Positions 4,290 through 60,902 are shown, counted from the stretch's first letter. The stretch: DNA of 64,000 nt from an uncultured Verrucomicrobiota bacterium (GCA_964539075.1 CAZIFU010000057.1:22153-86152), one strand, 5' to 3'. Notes: generated from the letters alone by a model not told the origin. A program made the numbers and translations.

Positions 4290-4447
4290 CCCCGTCAGGG
4301 GCAAAATGTTTATAGTGCCACCGTCAACCATCCTCCCCAGCTCCGTCAGGAGCGGCATGGACACGCCAGAACCTGTGATGCCGCCCCGCTGGGGCTTGGG
4401 TTTTTTCGTCCGCGCGACTCTATAAATATGCCGCTCCTGACGGAGCT
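4290..4447. repeat. Nested inverted repeat (perfect 20-bp arms 4339-4358 / 4428-4447; outer arm 4290-4315)
   Basis: agctccgtcaggagcggcat and its exact reverse complement atgccgctcctgacggagct. Outer ccccgtcaggggcaaaatgtttatag pairs imperfectly with ctataaatatgccgctcctgacggagc. Confidence 0.8.
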
Positions 4448-5848: not shown

Positions 5849-6162
5849 CCCCTCACCCTGACCCTCTCCCCATCGGATGGGGAGAGGGAAGGCGCGCGGC
5901 CCTTGAGCCTCAGGCTTGCGCGTGCGGCCTGCGCGGAGATTCCCTACCCATGAAACGTTCGTACCACCGCAAGGTCTTGGAGTGCGCCAGTCCTCTGGCG
6001 CTTTCGACAACCCACGACTTCCAAAGCGCCAGAGGACTGGCGCAGTCCAAGACGCTGACGCGATTAAGTTCGGTTTTCGCCGGTTCAGGGGCGCAAACCG
6101 CGAACTTTGGTTCGTGGACCCTCTCCCCTCATCCGATGAGGGGAGAGGGTCAGGGTGAGGGG
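5849..6162. mobile_element. 314-bp MITE-like non-autonomous element, copy 2, with perfect 23-bp terminal inverted repeats
   Basis: Left end cccctcaccctgaccctctcccc (5849-5871) is the exact reverse complement of the right end ggggagagggtcagggtgagggg (6140-6162). Each end is also a local hairpin. Core 5947-6118 matches 1638-1810. No coding capacity. Confidence 0.8.
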
Positions 6163-6263: not shown

Positions 6264-7331
6264 ATGCAATCGCAACCCGTCAACGTGGCCATCGTCGGCG
6301 CTTCCGGCTATTCCGGCGAAGAACTGGTGCGCCTGCTCCTGGCGCATCCGCACGCGCAACTGGCCGCCGTCACCTCGCGCCAATTCGCCGGCCAGATGCT
6401 CGCGCAGGTGTTCCCCAAATTCGCCCACCAGCCGCGCGCCAAAACGCTGCGCTTCAGCGAACCGAACGCCGAACTGCTCGCGCGCCAGGCGCAGGCCGTT
6501 TTCCTGGCGTTGCCGCACGGTGTGGCCGCGGAGTTCGCCGTGCCCCTGCTCCAACTGGGCTGCCAGGTCATTGATTTGAGCGCTGATTTCCGGCTCAAAA
6601 GCGCCGCCACCTACAAGGAGTTCTACGCGCACGATCATCCCGCGCCGGAACTGCTGGCGAAATCCGTTTATGGTTTGCCGGAAATTTACCGCGCGGAAAT
6701 CCGAAAGGCGTCGCTGGTCGCGTCGCCCGGCTGTTATCCCACGAGCATTTTGCTGCCGGTCCTCCCCTTGTTGCGCGCGGGCCTGGTCAAGCCCAGTGGG
6801 ATCATCGCCGATTCGCTCAGCGGCATCAGCGGCGCGGGCCGGAAGGTCGAGGCCGACTTTCTCTTCGTGGAATGCAATGAAAGCGTCCGGCCTTACGGCG
6901 TGCCACGGCACCGGCATTTGTCGGAGATCGAACAGGAACTTTCCCTCGCAACCAAGATACCCGTGACGATCCAATTCACGCCGCACCTCATCCCGATCAA
7001 CCGCGGCATCCTCACCACGCTGTACCTCGCGCCGGCCAACCATTTCGAAAACGCCAAAGAAATGGAGGACTTGAACGAAAAAATCGCTGCCTGCTACCAG
7101 TCCGCTTACGGCCAGGAACCGTTCATCCGCCTGCTCGAAGGCAAGTCGCTCCCCGACACCAAGAACGTCGCCGGCACCAACGTCCTCGAAATCGCGTGGC
7201 GCCTGGATCCGCGCACCGGCCGGCTCGTTGTCCTGAGCGCGCTGGACAACCTCGTCAAAGGCGCCAGCGGCCAGGCCGTGCAGAGCCTGAATATCTTATG
7301 CGGGTTTCCGGAGACGGCGGGGCTGATTTGA
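6264..7331 (+). CDS. argC: N-acetyl-gamma-glutamyl-phosphate reductase
   Basis: ORF 355 aa: VAIVGASGYSGEELVRLL, SPGCYPTS active-site Cys region, LDNLVKGASGQAVQ. Confidence 0.93.
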   Translation: MQSQPVNVAIVGASGYSGEELVRLLLAHPHAQLAAVTSRQFAGQMLAQVFPKFAHQPRAKTLRFSEPNAELLARQAQAVFLALPHGVAAEFAVPLLQLGCQVIDLSADFRLKSAATYKEFYAHDHPAPELLAKSVYGLPEIYRAEIRKASLVASPGCYPTSILLPVLPLLRAGLVKPSGIIADSLSGISGAGRKVEADFLFVECNESVRPYGVPRHRHLSEIEQELSLATKIPVTIQFTPHLIPINRGILTTLYLAPANHFENAKEMEDLNEKIAACYQSAYGQEPFIRLLEGKSLPDTKNVAGTNVLEIAWRLDPRTGRLVVLSALDNLVKGASGQAVQSLNILCGFPETAGLI

Positions 7332-7371
7332 TTTCGCGTCCGTTCGAGTGCTCCTCGTTCAGGCAATTTTC

Positions 7372-8772
7372 ATGAAAGCAAAGCTCAAGTTGATTGAAGG
7401 CTCCATCGTTGCGCCGCAGGGCTTCCTTGCCGCGGGCGTATTTTGCGACATCAAACGGCTCGGCACCGGCAAAGGCTCGCAAAAAGGCAAAAAGCGCGAC
7501 CTCGCGCTCATCGTCTCCCAAGCCCCGTGCAGCGTGGCGGGAATGTTTACGACCAACCAGGTCTGCGCCGCACCGGTCAAAGTCTGCCTCGAACGCGTTA
7601 AAGGTGGCACTGCCCAGGCCATCGTCGTCAACTCCGGCAACGCCAACGCCTGCACCGGCAAGCAGGGTCTCGAGGACGCCTGCGCGATGACCGTAATGGC
7701 CGCCAAGGCCGTGGCTGCGAACGTGAGTTCGCGGCTGATTTCCTCCCCGGCTGTAAAAAGTCATCCGCGTTCTCACGAACGCAGCCACGGAATGCTCAAC
7801 GAACACGTTTTTGTCGGTTCCACCGGACGCATCGGGGTCACCCTCCCGATGGCCAATGTGCGCCGGGGCATCGAAGCTGCCGCGAAGTTGTTGGGCTGTT
7901 CGCCCACGAACGCCGACCACGCTGCTGAAGCCATCATGACCAGCGACACGCGGCCCAAGCAGATCGCAGTCGAATTCAAGCTGGGCGGCAAGACGGTCCG
8001 TATCGGCGGCATCTGCAAAGGCGCCGGCATGATTCAGCCCGGCATGAGCGCCAGCGGCGCGCGCCCCGCCGCCATGCCGTTGCACGCCACGATGCTCTGC
8101 TTCCTCACCACCGACGCCGCGATTGAGTCGAACACCTTGCAGGCCGCGTTGCGCGAAGCCGTCGCACAAAGCTTTAACCGCCTCACCGTGGACGGCGACA
8201 TGAGCACCAACGATACCGTGCTGGTGCTGGCGAACGGCCTCGCCGGCAATTCCAGACTAAAAACTCAAAACTCAAAACTAAAAAAATTTCAGCTCGCCCT
8301 CACCCACGTCTGCCTCGAACTCGCGCAGATGATCGTCCGCGACGGCGAGGGCGTCTCGCGCTTCGTCACCGTCCGCGTCACCGGCGCACGCACGCCCGGC
8401 GAAGCCGACGCCGCCGCGCGCGCGGTGGCGAACAGTTCGCTGGTGAAAACCAGTTGGTGCGGTGGCGACCCGAACTGGGGCCGCATCATCGCCGCGCTCG
8501 GCTACTCGTCCGCAAAAGTCATCGAGGAGAAAGTGGGCATCGCCTACAGCGCACCCGGCAGCCGAAAGCGGTACTATTCGCTCCAGCGCGGCCAGCCGGC
8601 CCGCGTGCCTTTCCAGGCTCTTTGCCGGGCCGTCGCGCGGAGGGAATTCGACTTGCACATCAACTTGAATCTGGGCAAAGCAAGCGCGGTGATTTACTCC
8701 TGCGACCTGACGGAAGATTACGTGGACTTCAACAAAGGCGACGTGACCGACCCGGCGAACCTTGGCGGATGA
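7372..8772 (+). CDS. argJ: Bifunctional glutamate N-acetyltransferase / amino-acid acetyltransferase
   Basis: ORF 7348..8772, likely start MKAKLKLIEGS at 7372. Autoprocessing site HATMLCFLTTDA. IVRDGEGVSRF motif. Carries two atypical segments (see findings). Confidence 0.92.
   Translation: MKAKLKLIEGSIVAPQGFLAAGVFCDIKRLGTGKGSQKGKKRDLALIVSQAPCSVAGMFTTNQVCAAPVKVCLERVKGGTAQAIVVNSGNANACTGKQGLEDACAMTVMAAKAVAANVSSRLISSPAVKSHPRSHERSHGMLNEHVFVGSTGRIGVTLPMANVRRGIEAAAKLLGCSPTNADHAAEAIMTSDTRPKQIAVEFKLGGKTVRIGGICKGAGMIQPGMSASGARPAAMPLHATMLCFLTTDAAIESNTLQAALREAVAQSFNRLTVDGDMSTNDTVLVLANGLAGNSRLKTQNSKLKKFQLALTHVCLELAQMIVRDGEGVSRFVTVRVTGARTPGEADAAARAVANSSLVKTSWCGGDPNWGRIIAALGYSSAKVIEEKVGIAYSAPGSRKRYYSLQRGQPARVPFQALCRAVARREFDLHINLNLGKASAVIYSCDLTEDYVDFNKGDVTDPANLGG
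7714..7785. repeat. Twin mini-hairpin element inside argJ (hairpins 7717-7732 and 7767-7782)
   Basis: gcgaac-GTGA-gttcgc on the + strand and gcgttc-GTGA-gaacgc on the - strand, about 34 nt apart. Encodes NVSSRLISSPAVKSHPRSHERSH. Confidence 0.6.
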
Positions 8773-9658: not shown

Positions 9659-9660
9659 CA

Positions 9661-9747
9661 TTTTCGATTTGCGATTTACGATTGACGCATCGCCCGGTTT
9701 ATCCGGCACCGCAAGACGCGCGTCCATCGTAAATCGCAATTCGCAAA
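9661..9747. repeat. Imperfect inverted repeat of the TCGTAAATCGCAAATCG family between argB and argD
   Basis: Arms 9661-9688 and 9720-9747 (3 mismatches in about 27). Single arms of the same family at 52944-52973 and 54414-54445. Confidence 0.75.
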
Positions 9748-9749
9748 TT

Positions 9750-11099
9750 ATGAGAGACATCGCCCCATCGCCGCCCGCCGTCGTGCGCAACGAGACCGCA
9801 ACGATCCAGGCGCTGTTCCAGAAACATGTCGTGCCCACCTATGCGCGCTTCGAGGTTGCGTTCAGCCACGGGCAGGGATGTTACCTGTGGGACGTGACGG
9901 GCAAGCGCTACCTCGACATGGGCGGCGGCATCGCGGTCTGCTCGCTCGGGCACGCGCACCCGGCCATCAGCGAGGCGCTGGCCGCGCAATCGCGCCGGCT
10001 CGTGCACGTCTCCAACCTCTACTATCACGAGCCGCAGGGCCGGCTCGCGCAACAACTGGCCGGCCTCATCGGCCCGGGGAAATGTTTTTTCTGCAACAGC
10101 GGCGCCGAAGCGAACGAAGGATTGTTCAAGCTCGCCCGCAAGTTCGGCCATGACGAAGGGCGTTTTGAAATTCTCACGGCCGCCAATTCCTTCCACGGCC
10201 GGACGCTGGCGGGCATCGCGGCCACCGGCCAGGAGAAGGTGAAGAAAGGATTTGAGCCGCTGGTGACGGGATTCCGCCACGTTCCCTTCAATGACGTGGA
10301 AGCGGCACGGGCGGCCATTTCTCCGGCCACGGTCGCGATTCTGGTGGAGGGCGTCCAAGGCGAAGGCGGCGTTTTGCCGGCGACGCCGGAATATCTGCTG
10401 GGCCTGCGCCGGCTCTGCGACGAGAAGAAGCTGCTGCTGCTGATGGACGGTGTGCAATGCGGCCATTTCCGCACCGGACGCTTTCAAAGCTACCAACGGA
10501 TTCTTGAAGATTGTAGCAGCCGACGTGAGGAGGCTCATTCTTCCCACCTGAACTCCAGTCAGAGCCTCCTCACGTCGGCTGCTACGGAGTTTGTTCCCGA
10601 CGGCATTGCGATGGCCAAGTCGCTGGGCGGCGGGTTCCCCATCGGCGCGATCTGGATTCGCGAGCCGTACGCGGACCTGCTCGGCCCCGGCACGCACGCC
10701 ACGACGTTCGGCGGCACGCCGCTCGGTTGCGCGGTGGCATTGAAAATCCTCGAAGTCATCCAGCAGGAGAAGCTCGACGAAAACGCCCGCGCGATGGGAG
10801 AATTCCTCAAGCGCGAATTGCAACGACTGGCGCGCGAGCACTCGCAGATTTTGTCGGCGGTGCGCGGCCTGGGTTTGATGATCGGGATCGAACTGGCACA
10901 AAACATTCCGGCGTTGGCAGGGAACCAAAACCAATCGGCCTCGGTCCAGATGGTGAACCGCCTGCACGCAGCCGGGTTGATGACGATACCCGCCGGCAAC
11001 CAGGTCATTCGCCTGTTGCCGCCGTTGAACCTGCGGCAAGGGGAAGCGGAAGAGGCGTTGAAGATTCTGGAATCCGTGGTGAGAGATCTGGCCGCGTGA
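9750..11099 (+). CDS. argD: Acetylornithine aminotransferase
   Basis: ORF 9669..11099. The N-terminal 27 codons translate the repeat, so the likely start is ATG 9750 (MRDIAPSP). Motifs YLDMGGGIAVCSLGH, NSGAEANE, LLLLMDGVQCG, AKSLGGGFP (PLP-Lys). Confidence 0.9.
   Translation: MRDIAPSPPAVVRNETATIQALFQKHVVPTYARFEVAFSHGQGCYLWDVTGKRYLDMGGGIAVCSLGHAHPAISEALAAQSRRLVHVSNLYYHEPQGRLAQQLAGLIGPGKCFFCNSGAEANEGLFKLARKFGHDEGRFEILTAANSFHGRTLAGIAATGQEKVKKGFEPLVTGFRHVPFNDVEAARAAISPATVAILVEGVQGEGGVLPATPEYLLGLRRLCDEKKLLLLMDGVQCGHFRTGRFQSYQRILEDCSSRREEAHSSHLNSSQSLLTSAATEFVPDGIAMAKSLGGGFPIGAIWIREPYADLLGPGTHATTFGGTPLGCAVALKILEVIQQEKLDENARAMGEFLKRELQRLAREHSQILSAVRGLGLMIGIELAQNIPALAGNQNQSASVQMVNRLHAAGLMTIPAGNQVIRLLPPLNLRQGEAEEALKILESVVRDLAA
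10513..10585. repeat. Perfect palindromic element in frame inside argD (24-nt arms, 25-nt loop)
   Basis: gtagcagccgacgtgaggaggctc (10513-10536) and its exact reverse complement gagcctcctcacgtcggctgctac (10562-10585). Related copy at 59926-59992. Confidence 0.9.
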
Positions 11100-14022: not shown

Positions 14023-14055
14023 TGAAGGCGATCAGAACTCGACGGGGTTTCCCAA

Positions 14056-14124
14056 GGTGGGGCGAGACTCCGTCGAGCCAATTCTATTCACGTCCGGCTC
14101 GGCTCGACAGAGTCTCGCCCCACC
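14056..14124. repeat. 24-nt-arm hairpin repeat downstream of dnaJ
   Basis: ggtggggcgagactccgtcgagcc (14056-14079) vs ggctcgacagagtctcgccccacc (14101-14124). One mismatch, 21-nt loop. Confidence 0.85.
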
Positions 14125-14184
14125 TGCGCAGGATTTATGAAAGCGCCTGGATGAGGCCCACATTTCCGCCCCCTTCGGCTTCAT

Positions 14185-30304: not shown

Positions 30305-30562
30305 TAAGTGGCGCGCTTCAATCCGGCAAGGGTTCGGCGGGTCGCCGAAGCAATCGTTCAGACAACGCCCGTCCAGAAGGATGCCATTGAGAAAGGGGAG
30401 CGCAGCCGCCCCGGCTGCAGCCATTGGCGCCTCGCCGATGGCATCGGACAGCAAACGAGCGCACTGAATCGTCCGTGGGTTAACCCGGCAGACGTGATCA
30501 GCGAGGCGCCGAACACCGCACTCGCGGCGCGTGAGCTCCCCAAACCACTTTCATCGTTTCGG

Positions 30563-38261: not shown

Positions 38262-38545
38262 AAGCACCAAGCTCCAACATCCAAGCACCAGGGAAGCTCC
38301 AAACCTCAATCACCAAAACACGTTTCGGTAGCCCTTTATAAGTATCGGTCCAAATCGCCGCGGGCCGCGACGATTATTGCGCAGCGCGGACAGCCTTGTC
38401 CGCACGTTGATTTGCCGGCACCTCAGACTCGCGGACAAAGCTGTCCGCGCTCCTTTGGTTGCGGTGCCAGCCGCGCTGTGAGAATTGGTGTTTGAGGTTT
38501 CTCTGGAGGTTGGAGCTTGGAATTTGGAGCTTTTCGAGGTTATGC
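38262..38545. repeat. Composite palindrome between convergent genes (inner arms 38383-38403 / 38431-38451; outer imperfect arms about 38262-38335 / 38483-38545)
   Basis: agcgcggacagccttgtccgc vs gcggacaaagctgtccgcgct (1 mismatch). Each arm is itself a mini-palindrome gcggaca..tgtccgc. The outer CCAAGCTCCAA / TTGGAGCTTGG-rich arms are partly complementary. Confidence 0.75.
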
Positions 38546-38564: not shown

Positions 38565-41500
38565 TTATTTCCGCGCCTCCGGCACCACTGTGAGTTTTAC
38601 TTTCTGGCCGTCACGTTGCACGACGATTTCCACCGGCTGGCCGATCTTCACCGCGTCCAACGCGTAGGTGTAATCGTAGATGTTCGTGATTTTCTGACCG
38701 CCGAACTCGATGATGACGTCGCCTCCTTTCAATCCCGCTTTCTCCGCCGGGCTGCCGCCGCGCACACCGCTCAATTTCACGCCCTGCACTTCCGTCGTGT
38801 AGTCCGGGATGGTGCCGAGATAGGCGCGCAACGTCTCGCGCCCGCCGCCTTCGCCGCCGCCGCTGCGCTGCACCTTCGCGTAGTCGGGCCGCGCGCCCGC
38901 CAACAGGTCGAGCACGAGGCCGCGCGCAAACTGCGCCACGCGTTCCATGCCTTCATAGTTCAACTTGTCGGGCTTATCGGTTGGCCGGTGATAATCCTCG
39001 TGGCTGCCGGTGAAGAAATGCAGCACTGGCAGTTGCTTCGGGTAGAACGCGGTCACGTCGGTCGGTAAATACGGGTCGTCCAGCAACGCGACGTTGAACC
39101 CGGCGGCGACGTTCCGCTTCTCGATCAATCGCCGCCACACCGATGACGACCCGACGCCCTGCAAATCGAGCTTGTTGTCCCGCAATCGGCCCACCATGTC
39201 GAAATTCACGTAGGCAACGATGTTGGAAAGCGGCACCGGTGGGTGCTCCGCGAAATGCGACGAGCCGATCAAGCCGATCTCCTCGCCCGACCACAGTGCG
39301 AAGATGACGCCGCGCGGGAACAACGCCGGTTTCTGCTTCTGTTCGGCGGCGAGCGCGGCGGCCAGTTCGAGCACGACGGCGTCGCCGGAGGCGTTGTCGT
39401 CGGCGCCGTTGTGGATCGCGCCCTCCTCGCCCGCGCGTTCGAGCGAACGTCCCTCGCCGTGGCCGAGGTGATCATAGTGCGCGCCGATCAGGACGTATTC
39501 CACCGCGTCATTGCTCCGGAGGGACGAGCTGCGCGAGCCCCCATCTTTCTGAGAAGTTTTCAAATCAGGGACTCGCGTAGCTCGTCCCTCCGGAATAATT
39601 GGCGGCAGCACGGCGACGACATTGCGGTCGGTCTTGCGGATTTGTTCGACGGCCGTCGCGAGCTTGACCCGCGCGTTGGTAATGGCGAAGCCGCCGTCGG
39701 CATGCGGGTCCTCATTGTCGAGCGCGGTCTGGAGCGTTTTCAACTCCTTGCCCGCAGCGCTGAGGATCGCGCCGGCGGCCTTGTCGTTGATACTTGCGGC
39801 GAGGATGCCGGAGCCGGACAGGCTGGTGTCGAAAGTGAGCGGCGTGAGCTGGCCGGCGTTGGGCGAGTTCGGCCCCGTGACGACGAGCAACGCCTTCGCC
39901 CCGCGCTCGCGGGCGATCATCGCCTTGTAGCGCAGGCCGGCGTAGAGGTTGAGTTCCTGGCGGCGTTTCGGCTCCACGTCTTCGGGCACATAACGGAGCA
40001 CGAGCGCGATCTTGTTGCTCACGTCGAGGCCCGCATAGGAATCGTAGCCGCGTCCGGAGGCGGCCGGGACTTTGAGGCCGTAGCCGGCGAAGACGACCTC
40101 GCCTTCGAACTGGCCGTTGGCCGTGAAGGAGAGCGGGCGAAAATCCTCTTCGGGCTTGAAGACGAGTTCGCCAACGTAGCCGCCGGGCACGGTGACGGAC
40201 AAATTATTTTTCCCCGGCACGGTCTTGATGCCGGAGGTGAACTCGAACTGCTGAAAGTAACGGCCGTCATCGCCAAGCGGTTTCAGGCCGGCCCGTTGCA
40301 ACTGTGCTGCGATATACTCCGCGGCCAGTTGCGCGCCGCGCGAGCCGGTCAGCCGGCCTTCGAGCGCGGCGGCGGCGAGATATTCCACGTCGGCGCGCAA
40401 GTCTTTCACGGTGATGTCCGGTGTGAAACCCACGGGCATCGGCGGGCCGGGCTTTTCGGCAGAGACGGAAGCAGGCTTGGGCGGGGGCGTCGCGGAGGTT
40501 TCTTTCCCCGGCGCCGGTTTCGCGCCGCGCGCCGGCGCCGACCTGAGCGCCGCGAGCGCGGCGGAGTGGTTCCAGCGTGCGAGGAAGAGTTGCGATTTGC
40601 CGTCGCTGGTGCGGTTGGCTGTCCAGCAAAGTTTCTGGCCATCGGGCGACAACACGGGCAGGCCATCGAAGCCTTCGGCGAACGTCACGCGTACCGGTTC
40701 GCGCGCGCCGACGGCGTCCACGAGGAACAGCTCGAAATTGGAAAAGCCCAGCTTGTTCGCGGTGAAGATGACGTATTGGCCGGCGGGATGATAGTAAGGA
40801 GCCCAAGCCATGCAGCCGAAGTCGGTGAGCCGGCGCTGGTCGGTGCCGTCCAGCTTCATGCTGTAAATATCGGCGAGGGTTCCCTGCTCGTTGAAGTGGC
40901 GCCAGATGATGCGCTGGCTGTCGGGCGAAAAGAACGGCCCGCCGTCGTAACCCGGCCAGAGCGTGAGCCGCTTCTGGCCGGAGCCATCGGCGTTCATAAT
41001 GTAGATTTCGCCAAAGTACGCAGGGTCGATGGCGAGACGTTTGAGGTCGGCGGCGGAAAGTTTGTTGGTCGGGTAAGCGTCGCGCAGCGAGCAGAAGACG
41101 ATGTTTTTGCCGTCCGGCGAATATGCGCCCTCGGCATCGTAGCCGGGCGCCGTGGTGAGGCGCTTGAGTTGCGAGCCTTCACGACGCGCGGAAAAAATGT
41201 CCATCTGCTCGTCGTAATCCCACGAATAACGGCGCTCCTGGCCGGCGGCGCGGAATTCCAACTCGGCCCTTTGCTTCGCGCGCGCCTGCGGATCGAGATG
41301 CGTGGAGGCGAAGAGCACTTCGTCGCTGCCGGGGCGGAAGAACGCGCAGGTGGTCTTGCCGAGGCCGGGGGAGACGCGGTGGTTGTCGCCGGTTTCCAGA
41401 TCGAGCAGGAAGATCTGGTAGAACGGATTGTCCGGATCCCGTTCGCTCTGGAAAATGAGCGCCTTGCCGTCGGGCGAGAAGTAGCCTTCGCCGCTGCGCC

Positions 41501-41651
41501 GGCCCTCGAAGGTGAGCTGGCGCGTCTCGCTGAGAAATTGGGCTTCGCCGGCGGGGGCCGTTGGCGCGGCGGGCGCCGTCTGAAACATCACGGCAGCGAC
41601 GCACGCGGCCGCGAGCCATGTCACGCAGAACCTCAACTTCATGGCTGTCAT
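38565..41651 (-). CDS. Secreted multidomain peptidase: TolB-like WD40/PD40 beta-propeller + M28 aminopeptidase + C-terminal PDZ
   Basis: ORF 38565..42071. The first 140 codons cross a repeat, so the start is taken at MTAMKLRFCV (41651). PD40-like repeats (YSPDGK, FSPDSQ), M28 motifs (IGAHYDHLGHG, NGADDNASG, FALWSGEEIGLIGS), PDZ (GSPAEKAGLKGGDVIIEFGG). Confidence 0.8.
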   Translation of the reverse strand: MTAMKLRFCVTWLAAACVAAVMFQTAPAAPTAPAGEAQFLSETRQLTFEGRRSGEGYFSPDGKALIFQSERDPDNPFYQIFLLDLETGDNHRVSPGLGKTTCAFFRPGSDEVLFASTHLDPQARAKQRAELEFRAAGQERRYSWDYDEQMDIFSARREGSQLKRLTTAPGYDAEGAYSPDGKNIVFCSLRDAYPTNKLSAADLKRLAIDPAYFGEIYIMNADGSGQKRLTLWPGYDGGPFFSPDSQRIIWRHFNEQGTLADIYSMKLDGTDQRRLTDFGCMAWAPYYHPAGQYVIFTANKLGFSNFELFLVDAVGAREPVRVTFAEGFDGLPVLSPDGQKLCWTANRTSDGKSQLFLARWNHSAALAALRSAPARGAKPAPGKETSATPPPKPASVSAEKPGPPMPVGFTPDITVKDLRADVEYLAAAALEGRLTGSRGAQLAAEYIAAQLQRAGLKPLGDDGRYFQQFEFTSGIKTVPGKNNLSVTVPGGYVGELVFKPEEDFRPLSFTANGQFEGEVVFAGYGLKVPAASGRGYDSYAGLDVSNKIALVLRYVPEDVEPKRRQELNLYAGLRYKAMIARERGAKALLVVTGPNSPNAGQLTPLTFDTSLSGSGILAASINDKAAGAILSAAGKELKTLQTALDNEDPHADGGFAITNARVKLATAVEQIRKTDRNVVAVLPPIIPEGRATRVPDLKTSQKDGGSRSSSLRSNDAVEYVLIGAHYDHLGHGEGRSLERAGEEGAIHNGADDNASGDAVVLELAAALAAEQKQKPALFPRGVIFALWSGEEIGLIGSSHFAEHPPVPLSNIVAYVNFDMVGRLRDNKLDLQGVGSSSVWRRLIEKRNVAAGFNVALLDDPYLPTDVTAFYPKQLPVLHFFTGSHEDYHRPTDKPDKLNYEGMERVAQFARGLVLDLLAGARPDYAKVQRSGGGEGGGRETLRAYLGTIPDYTTEVQGVKLSGVRGGSPAEKAGLKGGDVIIEFGGQKITNIYDYTYALDAVKIGQPVEIVVQRDGQKVKLTVVPEARK
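39516..39593. repeat. 78-nt hairpin element in frame inside the peptidase gene
   Basis: ccggagggacgagctgcgcgagccc (39516-39540) vs gggactcgcgtagctcgtccctccg (39568-39592). Same family as 41707-41801. Confidence 0.85.
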
Positions 41652-41706
41652 GCTATGCCGTGCGCGCGCGGCGCAAAAGCGCGAAATCACGGGCGGAGGT
41701 CTTTTT

Positions 41707-41801
41707 CGGAGGGACGAGCTACGCGAGTCCCCGTTTGATTCGGAGACGTGAAGGAAGCTTGGGACTCGCGGAAGCTTGGGACTCGCGTCGCTCGTCCCTC
41801 C
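41707..41801. repeat. Intergenic copy of the same hairpin family, with an internal 17-nt tandem duplication
   Basis: Arms 41707-41731 / 41778-41801. gaagcttgggactcgcg occurs twice in tandem (41754-41770, 41771-41787). Confidence 0.85.
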
Positions 41802-41969
41802 AAAGGTGGGCCACCGCCAAGAGCACCCGCCAAGAGCACCCTTGCCAACGTTTCGGCCGCGTGAGAGGCTTGACCAGTTGGAATTGATGCACGATCTGCG
41901 CCGTGAACAATGCCCGGTCTCCCAACGCCGCCAGCGGGGGCTGATTGACCGCCCACCGGCCTGCCCGCC

Positions 41970-44900
41970 ATGTCTGTGAACGCTACCCCGCCCTCCGGCC
42001 CGGAAGCCGAACGCCGGCGGATCCAGCATCAGCATGAAATCCTCAATGCGCTGCCCGACACGGCGTTCCACGATCTTGCCCGGCTGGCGACGCAGCTTTG
42101 CCAGGCCCCCATCGCAGCGATCGCGCTCAGCACCGAGCGTGGCCCGCAGTTCAAGGCGCTGCTGGGTTTGAATTTATCGGACGAACTGCGGAAGGTTTCG
42201 TTTTTCGAGCAGACCGTCGCCCAGGCGGATATCTTCATCGTGGAGGACGCGGCGGCGGACGGACGGTTTGCCGGCGAACCGCTGGTTTGCGGCGAATCGG
42301 GCGTCCGTTTTTACTCCGGCCTGGCGCTGCGCAATGCCGACGGCGCGGCACTGGGTTGGTTTTGCGTGATGGACCGTGTGCCGCGCAAGCTCACCGGTGA
42401 ACAGGCCGAAGCCTTGCGCATCCTGGCCCGCCAGATCATGACCCAGGTGGAGATGCGCCAGGTTTATTCCGAGGCGATCCAATATCAGCAGGCCGAGGAG
42501 GAGTTGCGCGAGAGCGAACTGCGCTTCCGCCAGTTGGCCGAAAACATCCACGAAGTCTTCTGGCTCACGGACTGGGTCACTCATCGCGTCATTTACGTCA
42601 GCCCGGCCTACGAACAAATCTGGGGCCGCACCGCCCGGAACCTGTATGACCATCCGCGCGAATGGCTGGACTCGATCCACCCGGAGGACCGGACGCGCGT
42701 GCGGGACTCTTTCCTCAAGACGGCGGCCAGCGGCAGCTTCGATGAAGAGTTCCGCATCGTGCGGCCCGATCAATCGGTCCGCTGGGTCCATGACCGCGGC
42801 TTCCCGATCCGCAACGACCAGGGCGAGGTGTTCCGCATCGCGGGGATCGCGGAGGACATCACCAAAAACAAGGCGGCAGAAGAGGCGTTGCGTCAGGCCG
42901 AGCAGAAGTACCACAGTATTTTTGAAAACGTCACCGAAGGCATTTTCCAGACGACGCCCGACGGGCATTATCTGGCGGCCAACCCGATGCTGGCGCGCAT
43001 CTATGGATACGCCTCGCCGGAGGAGTTGATGGCGGCCGTCCAGGACATCACTCACCAGCTTTACGTGACGGAGGGCCGGCGGGTGGAATTTGCCCGGCTG
43101 ATGCAGGAAAACGAGGCCATTGCGGATTTTGAATCGCAGATCCATCGCAAGGATGACAGCGTGATCTGGATTTCGGAGAACGCCCGCGCGGTGCGGGACG
43201 CCGGCGGCCACCTGCTCTACTACGAAGGAACGGTGCGGGACATCACGGCCCGCAAACGGGCGGAGGACGCGCTGCTTGACTCGGAAATCCTTTATCACTC
43301 GCTGGTGGAAAGCCTGCCGCAAAACATTTTCCGCAAAGACGCCCAGGAACGGTTCACCTTCGCGAACAAGCGTTTTTGCGACACGCTCGGCAAGCCGCTG
43401 GCGGAAATCCTGGGCCGGACCGACTTCGATTTTTTCCCGGAAGAACTGGCCCGCAAATACCAACAGGACGACCGCCGGGTGATGGAACAGCGGGAAACCT
43501 TCGAGACGGTCGAGGAGCATCAGAAGCCCGACGGCAGCAAGCTCCACGTTCAGCTGATCAAGACCCCGTTGTACGATTTCAGCGGCAACGTCATCGGCGT
43601 GCAGGGCATGTTCTGGGACGTCACCGAGCGCAAAAAAATCGAGCAGACCCTCGCCCACGAACGCGATCTGTTGCGCGCCCTGCTGGACCACGTGCCCGAC
43701 CGGATTTACTTCAAGGACGCGCAATCGCGCTTCCTCAAATGCAGCAAGGCGCTGGCGGAGCGCCTGGGGCTATCCGACCCGGAACTGGCGGTGGGCAAGA
43801 CGGATTTCGACTTTCACCCGCTGGATAAGGCGCGCGAGTTCCACACCGATGAACAACGCATCATCGAGAGCGGCCGGCCGCTGATCAATAAAATCGAAAA
43901 ACAGGTGGACCCCCAGCGCGCCGAAATCTGGGCATCGGTCACCAAGGTGCCGGTCTACAACCAGGCCGGCGTCGTCACCGGCATCATCGGCATCTCGCGC
44001 GACATCACCGCGCTCAAAAAGATTGAGGAGGAACTGGAGATCAATCGCGACGCGGCGCTGGAGCTGGTGCGGCAGAAGTCGCAATTCCTCGCCACCATGA
44101 GCCACGAAATCCGCACGCCGATGAACGGCATCCTGGGGATGATCGGCCTGCTGCTCGACACCCGCCTGACGGTCAAACAGCGCGACTTCGCCGAAACCAT
44201 CCGCGGCAGCGCGGAGGCCTTGCTGACGATCATCAATGACATCCTGGACTTCTCGAAGATCGAGGCCGGCAAGCTGACGTTTGAGACCCTTGACTTCGAT
44301 TTGCGCGAGGCGATGGAAAGCACGGTCGAGCTGCTGGCCGAGCGCGCCCAGGCCAAGCAACTCGAATTGATTTCCTTCGTCCCGCCCGATGCGCCCACCG
44401 CCTTGCGCGGCGATCCGGGCCGCTTCCGGCAGATCCTCACCAACCTCGTCGGCAACGCGGTCAAATTCACCGAACATGGCGAAGTCATCGTGCGCGCCGT
44501 CAAGGAAAGCGAAACCGACCAGCAGGTGTGGTGGAAGTTCCTGGTGTCGGACACGGGCATCGGCGTGCCGGAAGAGGCGAAGGAGAAAATCTTCCAGGCC
44601 TTCACGCAGGCCGACGGCTCGACGACGCGCAAATACGGCGGCACCGGACTGGGTCTGGCCATTTCCAAGCAGCTCGTCGAAATGTTGGGAGGCAGGATCG
44701 GCCTGGAGGACACGCCCGGCCGTGGCTCGGCATTCTGGTTCACGCTGCCGTTTGAAAAGCAGCCGCCCAAAACCGGCGCCGAAAACGCCCGGCTCCAATT
44801 CCCCGGCACGCGAATTCTGGTGGTGGATGACAACACGCTGCACCGCGAATTCCTGGCCGAACATCTGCGGTCTTTGCAGATTGAGACCGAACTGGCCGCC

Positions 44901-55157: not shown

Positions 55158-55197
55158 CCTCTCCTGATGCCATGCGCCAGGACTATTCATTTAAGAA

Positions 55198-55292
55198 ACA
55201 TCCAACATCCAACATCCAACGCCCAACATCCCATGGTTGGGCATCCGGACGTTCATTGGGAATTGGATGTTGGATGTTGGATGTTGGATGTT
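55198..55292. repeat. Heptamer-array inverted repeat (AACATCC x4 facing TTGGATG x4)
   Basis: aacatccaacatccaacatccaacgcccaacatccca ... tgggaattggatgttggatgttggatgttggatgtt. Ends 8 nt before the recO ATG. Confidence 0.85.

Positions 55293-58974: not shown

Positions 58975-58997
<23 letters not shown>
58527..58997 (-). CDS. PIN-domain (VapC-like) toxin
   Basis: ORF 156 aa: VYLETTIPSLLTA...DAAHIAVAAVHRMDFLLTWNCRHIAN. The first 23 nt overlap the end of ispG. Confidence 0.75.

Positions 58998-60902
<1,905 letters not shown>

Follow-up and report, generated by a model that had tools for sequence, protein, structure and literature searches.

Short palindromic repeats of the repetitive extragenic palindromic (REP) type were sorted into the GTAG and CGTC superfamilies by Di Nocera, De Gregorio, and Rocco (2013; BMC Genomics 14:522; PMC3733652), who also defined their dimers and heterodimers and their linkage to genes for REP-associated tyrosine transposases (RAYTs). 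The same study lists ~70 intragenic GTAG REP entries in Opitutus terrae, where such entries are most numerous; many are dimers encoding 20–30 residues, and repair genes are enriched among the hosts. Here we describe a 73-nt palindrome within argD of an uncultured Verrucomicrobiota bacterium, in a 64-kb stretch of DNA that was analyzed at full length (the window, on which all unprefixed coordinates are counted). The palindrome is very probably a non-autonomous element resembling a REPIN (REP doublet forming a hairpin), that is, two inverted GTAG REPs moved by a RAYT and read through by the host gene as a loop of ~25 residues. Its repeat family, termed family A here, is of the known GTAG REP kind, and in-gene copies in Verrucomicrobiota were also known; the repeated occupation of the same loops by different elements is less ordinary. 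The preliminary description of this DNA knew of no verrucomicrobial precedent, a view that the intragenic GTAG REP dimers reported in O. terrae (PMC3733652) overturn.

Family A shares with the O. terrae repeats a GTAG head followed by a short stem-loop, RAYT linkage, in-gene copies of 20–30 residues, a verrucomicrobial host, head-to-head and tail-to-tail dimers that include both homo- and heterodimers, and DNA-repair hosts (UvrA, MutS, and XseA in family A). The unit sequence is different, however, as is the order of the host (Opitutales versus Limisphaerales for family A). Family A has the GTAG tag, occurs as solo units and inverted dimers, and has a stem-loop within the range given for the GTAG superfamily (stem 5–13 bp, loop 2–20 nt; PMC3733652). 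The family A peptides and 15-mer do not appear in the tables of that paper, and neither argD nor ispG is among its hosts (supplements searched). Same-site REPs are described there only for Xanthomonas recB, and turnover of several families in one loop is not described. Our literature search found no paper linking Pedosphaera or Limisphaerales with REPs.

The REPIN–RAYT systems (Bertels and Rainey 2011, PMC3116915; 2022 preprint 10.1101/2021.07.10.451892) share with family A a hairpin built from two inverted REPs with a less conserved spacer between them, a cognate RAYT that has REPs on its flanks, a match of sister RAYT clades to sister REP types, and long persistence near a master sequence. 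REPINs are described as almost exclusively extragenic, whereas about a quarter of family A dimers lie in frame in genes; family A is also shorter (65–100 nt), and its RAYT is a divergent one, scoring 45 bits with the NCBIfam model. The Escherichia coli enzyme TnpA-REP is a monomeric HUH/Y1 protein that binds a 5′ GTAG together with an imperfect hairpin and cleaves single-stranded DNA (Messing et al. 2012, PMC3479197). The REPs and bacterial interspersed mosaic elements of E. coli have the same placement of GTAG beside an imperfect hairpin and make no target duplication, but they are extragenic, at gene 3′ ends. The CT dinucleotide at which TnpA-REP cleaves (PMC3479197) is weakly enriched beside family A heads; a sharply positioned CT was not found there, only a diffuse pyrimidine enrichment of the flanks.

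Rickettsia palindromic elements (RPEs; Ogata et al. 2000), as they are summarized in PMC3733652, are likewise palindromes inserted into housekeeping genes without loss of frame; they are translated, surface loops tolerate them, and both intragenic and intergenic copies occur. In that summary the intragenic RPE-4 and RPE-6 of R. conorii are CGTC-tagged and have no dedicated transposase, whereas family A is GTAG-tagged; no sequence relation is evident, judged by tag class, and RPE-1 is longer. The RPE host is an obligate intracellular alphaproteobacterium, the family A host a free-living soil or freshwater verrucomicrobium. The analogy with RPEs drawn in the preliminary description holds as shared behavior (in frame, gene undisrupted) and does not establish RPE membership.

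The argD palindrome and its 24-nt unit

The features of the argD locus are as follows.

9750–11099, plus strand: host gene argD (acetylornithine aminotransferase, class III), intact, with a coding sequence identical to database protein P0001 and the catalytic Lys in AMAKSLGGG
10509–10589, plus strand: insert of 27 codons, DCSSRREEAHSSHLNSSQSLLTSAATE, replacing the 7-codon loop GVPGGEx of empty orthologues
10513–10536, plus strand: REP unit 1, with a GTAG head, 4-bp stem AGCC/GGCT, tandem G.A, a C-G pair, and a GTGA loop
10537–10561, no strand: dimer spacer, 25 nt, ATTCTTCCCACCTGAACTCCAGTCA
10562–10585, minus strand: REP unit 2, inverted, head outermost (tail-to-tail), the perfect reverse complement of unit 1

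The two arms (GTAGCAGCCGACGTGAGGAGGCTC and its partner) form a 100% complementary inverted repeat of 24 nt each around the 25-nt spacer, and argD stays in frame across the 73 nt with no stop (...QRILEDCSSRREEAHSSHLNSSQSLLTSAATEFVPDG...; conceptual peptide across the insert, SSRREEAHSSHLNSSQSLLTSAATEF). Complementarity and stop-free read-through thus bear out the palindrome as first reported, with its perfect 24-bp stem, 25-nt loop, and in-frame position. By window shuffles, 0 matches to the arm pattern are expected by chance. The 89-nt stretch containing the palindrome has a folding energy of −32.1 kcal/mol for DNA (z = −9.1) and −53.9 kcal/mol for RNA (z = −8.2), and 0 of 200 shuffles fold as well. 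Rfam, at gathering threshold, gave no match in the whole window.

The functional unit is a REP stem-loop of 24 nt headed by GTAG, two of which, inverted and tail-to-tail, make up the element, because the arms fold alone with covariation and dimers of mixed subtype keep their intra-arm pairing. The arm consensus is GTAG[C/G]AG[C/A]CGA[C/G]GT[G/A]A[G/C]GAG[G/T]CTC, with a near-invariant head (76 dimers, 5′ arms: G1 76/76, T2 72/76, A3 74/76, and G4 76/76; 3′ arms similar). Behind the head, positions 5/6–9 form a helix with 20–23/24, supplemented by the pair 12–17, and close on a GTGA/GTAA loop. Positions within one arm covary (12–17, C-G or G-C; 8–21, C-G or A-T; 6–23, A-T or C-G), and double-sided changes occur at all 6 intra-arm pairs. 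Over 91 distinct arms the covariation score was 0.273, compared with 0.083 ± 0.013 for shuffles (0/500 reach it) and 0.02–0.095 for slid partners; 82% of cells in the arm helix are paired, versus 70% in shuffles. Heterodimers retain the intra-arm pairs and lose the inter-arm pairs. We counted 30 CG/CG homodimers and at least 14 heterodimers of CG/CG with CG/GC. The perfect 24-bp stem of the window is the homodimer case only: the stem seen in the preliminary description is real, whereas its reading as the basic unit fails on the covariation and the heterodimers. Unit 1 of the argD dimer is the commonest, or master, 24-mer of family A (56 of 233 arms).

The window plus loci (~1 Mb) contain 79 full dimers and 77 solo units; spacers range from 16 to 106 nt (modes 17, 22, 25, and 46) and vary while the arms are conserved. 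Two inverted arms round a short non-coding core, in many dispersed copies, are also what would be expected of a classical miniature inverted-repeat transposable element, a deletion derivative of a DDE insertion sequence that moves as double-stranded DNA, with the 24-nt arms as terminal inverted repeats, and makes a target-site duplication. We consider this very unlikely. Direct repeats at the dimer junctions are not above those at random control positions (69 of 75 dimers have no adjacent direct repeat), a covarying stem-loop is present in every arm, though a terminal inverted repeat needs none, solo arms and heterodimers are common, and the transposase genes adjacent to family A units encode HUH/Y1 RAYTs rather than DDE enzymes. 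No larger composite element was found around the dimer, the copies sharing at most 16–20 nt of flank. For a REPIN-like element, the units would be recognized as single-stranded hairpins and would be cut and joined in trans by the RAYT, an HUH enzyme whose cut-and-join reaction would leave no target-site duplication. A copy within a gene would persist only in a structurally permissive loop, with the frame preserved and in one of the two phases that avoid TAG.

Spread of family A and linkage to RAYT genes

When a degenerate arm was scanned against 185,579 species-representative genomes, family A was found in at least 118 stretches from ~85 species-level assemblies. Among the matches listed, nearly all are labeled Verrucomicrobiota, Limisphaerales, or subdivision 3, and the copies per assembly reach at least 8 loci in one metagenome-assembled genome (MAG; JACRJZ01). 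The window itself has 2 dimers. The arm therefore recurs at more than 100 unrelated loci, as the dispersed family proposed earlier would have it. Some family A contigs come from MAGs titled Bifidobacterium, Klebsiella, or Akkermansia muciniphila (L011, L021, L022, L049, L064, L070, L088, L089, and L099); these bins are probably mislabeled.

Two RAYT-like genes next to family A units, L016:884–1558 (E = 3.8e-6) and L043:2–289, were picked by phmmer from 7,419 open reading frames (ORFs) with the E. coli YafM sequence as query. L016:935–1561 matches NCBIfam NF047646 ("REP-associated tyrosine transposase") over nearly the full profile (E = 9.4e-12, 45 bits), and the L043 ORF, which abuts family A units, matches it at E = 9.4e-5. 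Both proteins have an HUH motif, with PDHIHLVW in L016, and are divergent RAYT relatives. Such genes were missed by Pfam Y1_Tnp and detected by NCBIfam and phmmer. Regular-expression searches for HUH/RAYT motifs gave no match, the patterns being too narrow, and no transposase was found among the ORFs between distant arms in L085 and L035 or by Pfam on ten arm-adjacent ORFs.

Family A units bracket the L016 gene (819–916, 1516–1539, and 1591–1614). Upstream is a dimer headed by a perfect unit and ending 19 nt before the start codon; the 3′ end of the gene overlaps with one inverted unit, and a second, perfect inverted unit comes after it. A metagenome scan with the L016 protein, which selected loci by protein similarity alone, yielded 23 RAYT homologue loci, 10 of them flanked by family A units, mostly as dimers on both sides. 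The other 13 form a sister group whose flanks carry a sister GTAG REP, both as GTAGCCGCCGACGTNAGTCGGCGC and as a compensated variant; in this sister family, positions 10–11 and 18–19 are Watson-Crick pairs. In all, 12 loci have a divergent RAYT gene flanked by family A units, all in genomes other than that of the window. The arrangement of a RAYT flanked by its units (a REPtron) is therefore present in other genomes, and RAYT and REP are specific to one another. The matched RAYT/REP sister pairs offer a system for studying element movement and uniformity. In the sister clade (L135–L149; e.g., L136 1400–1500 and 2070–2160), the REP GTAGCCGCCGACGTNAGTCGGCGC / GTAGCCGCGGACGTCAGTCCGCGC has its first 17 nt in common with family A, and an intermediate unit, GTAGCAGCCGACGTGAGTCGGCTC (peptide VAADVSPL...), occurs in IspG of some orthologues.

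Several points weigh against a RAYT-moved REPIN-like element in the window. No RAYT gene was found in its 64 kb, so that mobilization in the source genome is extrapolated from other genomes. The RAYT matches, at 45 bits, fall below the 80-bit NCBIfam equivalog cutoff, and they do not reach significance with Pfam Y1_Tnp. Near-identical genomes forming a recent presence/absence pair did not turn up, and hence no insertion event or exact target was observed. The RNA hairpin (−54 kcal/mol, perfect 24-bp stem) might be cleaved by RNase III.

Reading phase, the ArgD loop, and its turnover

By conservative criteria, 19–22 of 78 family A dimers are read through in ORFs with coding-type GC content at third codon positions. 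The arms are stop-free in all frames apart from the TAG of GTAG, and the in-gene copies have GTAG in phase xGT-AGN (17) or GTA-GNN (5), with 0 having TAG in frame. Pfam-confirmed hosts include MnmA, a second class-III aminotransferase, an Eco57I-type methylase, AcrB, MauG, two P-type ATPases, GluRS/GlnRS, NuoE/F, MutS, XseA, UvrA, and a class-I aminotransferase, among others. Depending on host phase, the arms encode different peptides (VAADVRRL..., ...EPPHVGCY, and ...ASSRRLLR), an observation that speaks against function at the protein level and against excision from the mRNA. Splicing of the element from the mRNA was rejected also on the rarity of intragenic copies that break a frame (1–2). 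Elements of the REPIN/RAYT type, usually described as extragenic, thus colonize coding sequence extensively in an order that is widespread in soil and freshwater, and core enzymes (ArgD, IspG, ArgJ, MutS, UvrA, and GluRS) would gain ~25-residue disordered loops, a natural experiment on which protein loops tolerate insertion.

Two further in-gene copies were observed. A class-III aminotransferase distinct from ArgD holds an in-frame family A dimer (VGADVRSLKSKPRKNEPPHVGCY; L011 7089–7157) at a position other than the ArgD site. Another, at L001 7049–7117, lies in argJ of the closest relative of the window; the frame shifts at the left junction and the gene is called in pieces, which reflects either a pseudogene or an assembly indel. 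Inserts of this kind inflate protein length and can split gene calls, as for this argJ, and verrucomicrobial alignments, trees, and structure predictions can be distorted by them.

Alignment to solved ArgD structures places query residues 250–280 (31 residues) opposite 3 residues of Thermotoga maritima ArgD (2ORD), for ~28 extra residues. The nearest orthologues have the empty loop GVPGGEx, relative to which the window argD has a net gain of 20 codons; the empty allele of L004 reads GAAGGCGTTCCTGGCGGCGAAAACTTT. The ~28-codon insertion put forward in the preliminary description is accordingly right against distant orthologues and too large against the nearest empty alleles. The ~10 residues it allowed between GRTG and the AK lysine are too few, since T. 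maritima ArgD has 17. That the block is an insertion was upheld by alignment with distant and close orthologues: it is missing from the distant ArgDs and from many of the close ones.

We modeled ArgD with AlphaFold2 from a 120-sequence alignment (mean predicted local distance difference test score, pLDDT, 76; predicted TM-score 0.78); a 45-sequence model (pLDDT 56) was discarded as too poor. The model superposes on solved ArgD structures (TM-score 0.88 to 2ORD). Residues 254–276 have pLDDT below 50, and the insert loop overall, at 30–52, has the lowest confidence in the protein; this segment lies between helix 245–260 and strand 284–290, which bears Lys289. The argD insert is thus predicted to be a low-confidence loop just before the catalytic-lysine strand, with the fold intact. 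The element would occupy the loop between the helix that follows the strand of the aspartate contacting pyridoxal phosphate and the strand of the Schiff-base lysine, and it would probably be translated as a disordered excursion of ~25 residues that the enzyme tolerates, its fold staying intact.

The nearness of this loop to the active-site lysine strand, and the recurrence of the peptide SSRGNEALTSKSE..QSLLTSAAT in dozens of ArgD orthologues, would also suit a selected functional loop of ~25 extra residues in which the DNA palindrome is incidental. Such a protein-level innovation is highly improbable: the same DNA in other phases gives unrelated peptides in other hosts, model confidence is lowest here, the segment is replaced by unrelated sequences or missing in sister lineages, and conservation of the repeat at the DNA level explains that of the peptide.

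Among 120 ArgD homologues, all ~70% identical and all from Verrucomicrobiota, the loop between QRILE and F(L/V)PDG is the short GVPGGEx in ~35 and filled in the rest; the VPGG seen in the empty alleles is missing from every one of the ~80 filled loops. Three filled loops that were fetched as DNA are long hairpins of three mutually unrelated sequence families. The fillers, on which the preliminary description was silent, include arrays of a 7-nt tandem repeat (heptamer arrays) as well as hairpins.

Window: family A
L127 and L006: second GTAG-headed family, GTAG + GACAGGCG-TCG-CGCCTGTC
L005: CATG-ended hairpin family
L126: heptamer array, inverted
L125: heptamer array, purely direct, (AAACTCG)~5

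The ArgD proteins of L002 and L005 are 92% identical, yet the loop holds family A in L002 and family C in L005. The argD orthologues that carry family A have mostly heterodimers with 3–5 arm mismatches (SRGNEA arm), all with identical junctions, and they are not monophyletic in a neighbor-joining ArgD tree with the loop masked, a tree that is weakly resolved. That the same ArgD and IspG loops hold several unrelated hairpin families or heptamer arrays across lineages is one of two less ordinary aspects of this system; the other is the identity of the arms where synonymous sites are saturated.

Third codon positions are saturated between these argD genes (identity 0.46–0.58), whereas 39–47 of the 48 arm positions are identical between argD copies (81–98%; p ≤ 1e-5) from genes with third-position identity of 0.50–0.58. 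The argD spacers of L002, L003, and L105 are 68–84% identical to one another; the window spacer is unrelated to them (44–48%) and has its first 8 nt in common with copies at other loci (L077 and L010). The argD copy is not a neutrally drifting relic, its arms being held near the family consensus, and copies at the argD site are exchanged, both within family A and between families. A single ancient insertion, inherited vertically and decaying neutrally, would account for the identical junctions of all family A argD copies, and an assembly artefact of palindromic reads might be suspected in a window taken from a metagenome-assembled contig. Either is extremely unlikely. Neutral decay is contradicted by the arm identity at saturated third positions, and one insertion by the window spacer, which resembles copies elsewhere, by the non-monophyletic carriers, and by close relatives with other families; an artefact is contradicted by dozens of independent assemblies with the insert (NCBI, ENA, JGI, and Logan).

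The conservation might instead stem from function, with the palindrome serving as a locally selected regulatory hairpin of argD in mRNA or DNA (ribosome pausing, RNase III cleavage, or attenuation) rather than as a mobile unit. The arms, together with the spacer in L002, L003, and L105, are indeed much better conserved than synonymous sites, the hairpin has high stability as RNA, and the junctions are identical in all family A argD genes. We regard such regulation as improbable: the same sequence stands at >100 unrelated loci, mostly intergenic or in other genes, the conservation tracks the genome-wide family consensus with nothing specific to argD, and close relatives have unrelated hairpins, heptamer arrays, or nothing, as in the L002/L005 pair.

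As a tentative and rather doubtful extension of the REP-dimer account, a few loops of Limisphaerales housekeeping proteins might be persistent landing pads at which REP dimers, their alleles, and 7-nt microsatellite arrays swap like cassettes, by site-directed turnover rather than random insertion and selection. Such turnover might proceed through RAYT action at a resident GTAG unit or through gene conversion via the 24-nt arms, and directed turnover, if true, would represent a new way in which loops of otherwise conserved bacterial enzymes become hypervariable.

Other hairpin inserts in the window

At least 6 hairpin families are present in the 64-kb window, and the following features lie outside argD.

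58975–60843, minus strand: host gene ispG (GcpE, long form)
59924–59994, minus strand: second family A dimer, 71 nt (arms 59924–59947 and 59971–59994, 23-nt spacer, beta-type, 3 inter-arm mismatches)
59470–59565, minus strand: IspG site 2, a second in-frame block, GIETTQPLTPSLSPSDGERVSRKAGSGEGNFW (SLSPSDGER), with two small hairpins
7709–7790, plus strand: hairpin of another family, 82 nt (CCGTGGCTGCGAACGTGAGTTCGCGG...), in the argJ ORF (7327–8769), in frame as VAANVSSRLISSPAVKSHPRSHERSHG
39510–39599 and 41705–41804, in an ORF at 38568–42173, minus strand: two third-family hairpins (GGAGGGACGAGCTGCGCGAG...), in frame in a 1202-residue M28 peptidase / PD40 / PDZ protein
1665–1744 and 5974–6053, in opposite orientation: an 80-nt hairpin element present twice, its arms 34 nt long (GTCTTGGAGTGCGCCAGTCCTCTGGCGCTTT...), probably intergenic
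14055–14125, 38383–38451, 4339–4447, and 30395–30541: further intergenic hairpins of other sequence types
55197–55292 and 9660–9748: 7-nt tandem repeat arrays (others at L125 3745–3819 and L126 3064–3228)

The ispG dimer, which the preliminary description had reported as a sibling at 59926–59992, is indeed a family A copy and is read in frame as VGDDVRRLTSKSEIDQSLLTSSPA. At this site (site 1), 53 of 120 IspG orthologues have family A (alpha and beta types), 48 another insert, and 19 a short heptamer-like loop. Site 2 is empty (KDCLNFEPVPLEP) in some orthologues and holds at least 6 insert types in others, including a family A variant and the SLSPSDGER block of the window. The argJ hairpin is a 25-residue insertion, missing from ArgJ of L002, L004, and L005, and its family also fills IspG site 1 in some orthologues (VAANVSSRLT...).

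Some of the heptamer arrays are inverted and form hairpins. Heptamers also occur as spacer content of REP dimers, and the spacer modes of 25 and 46 nt differ by 3 × 7. In some orthologues, heptamer arrays are the sole content of the ArgD, IspG, and ArgJ loops, and in the window an array lies just upstream of argD.

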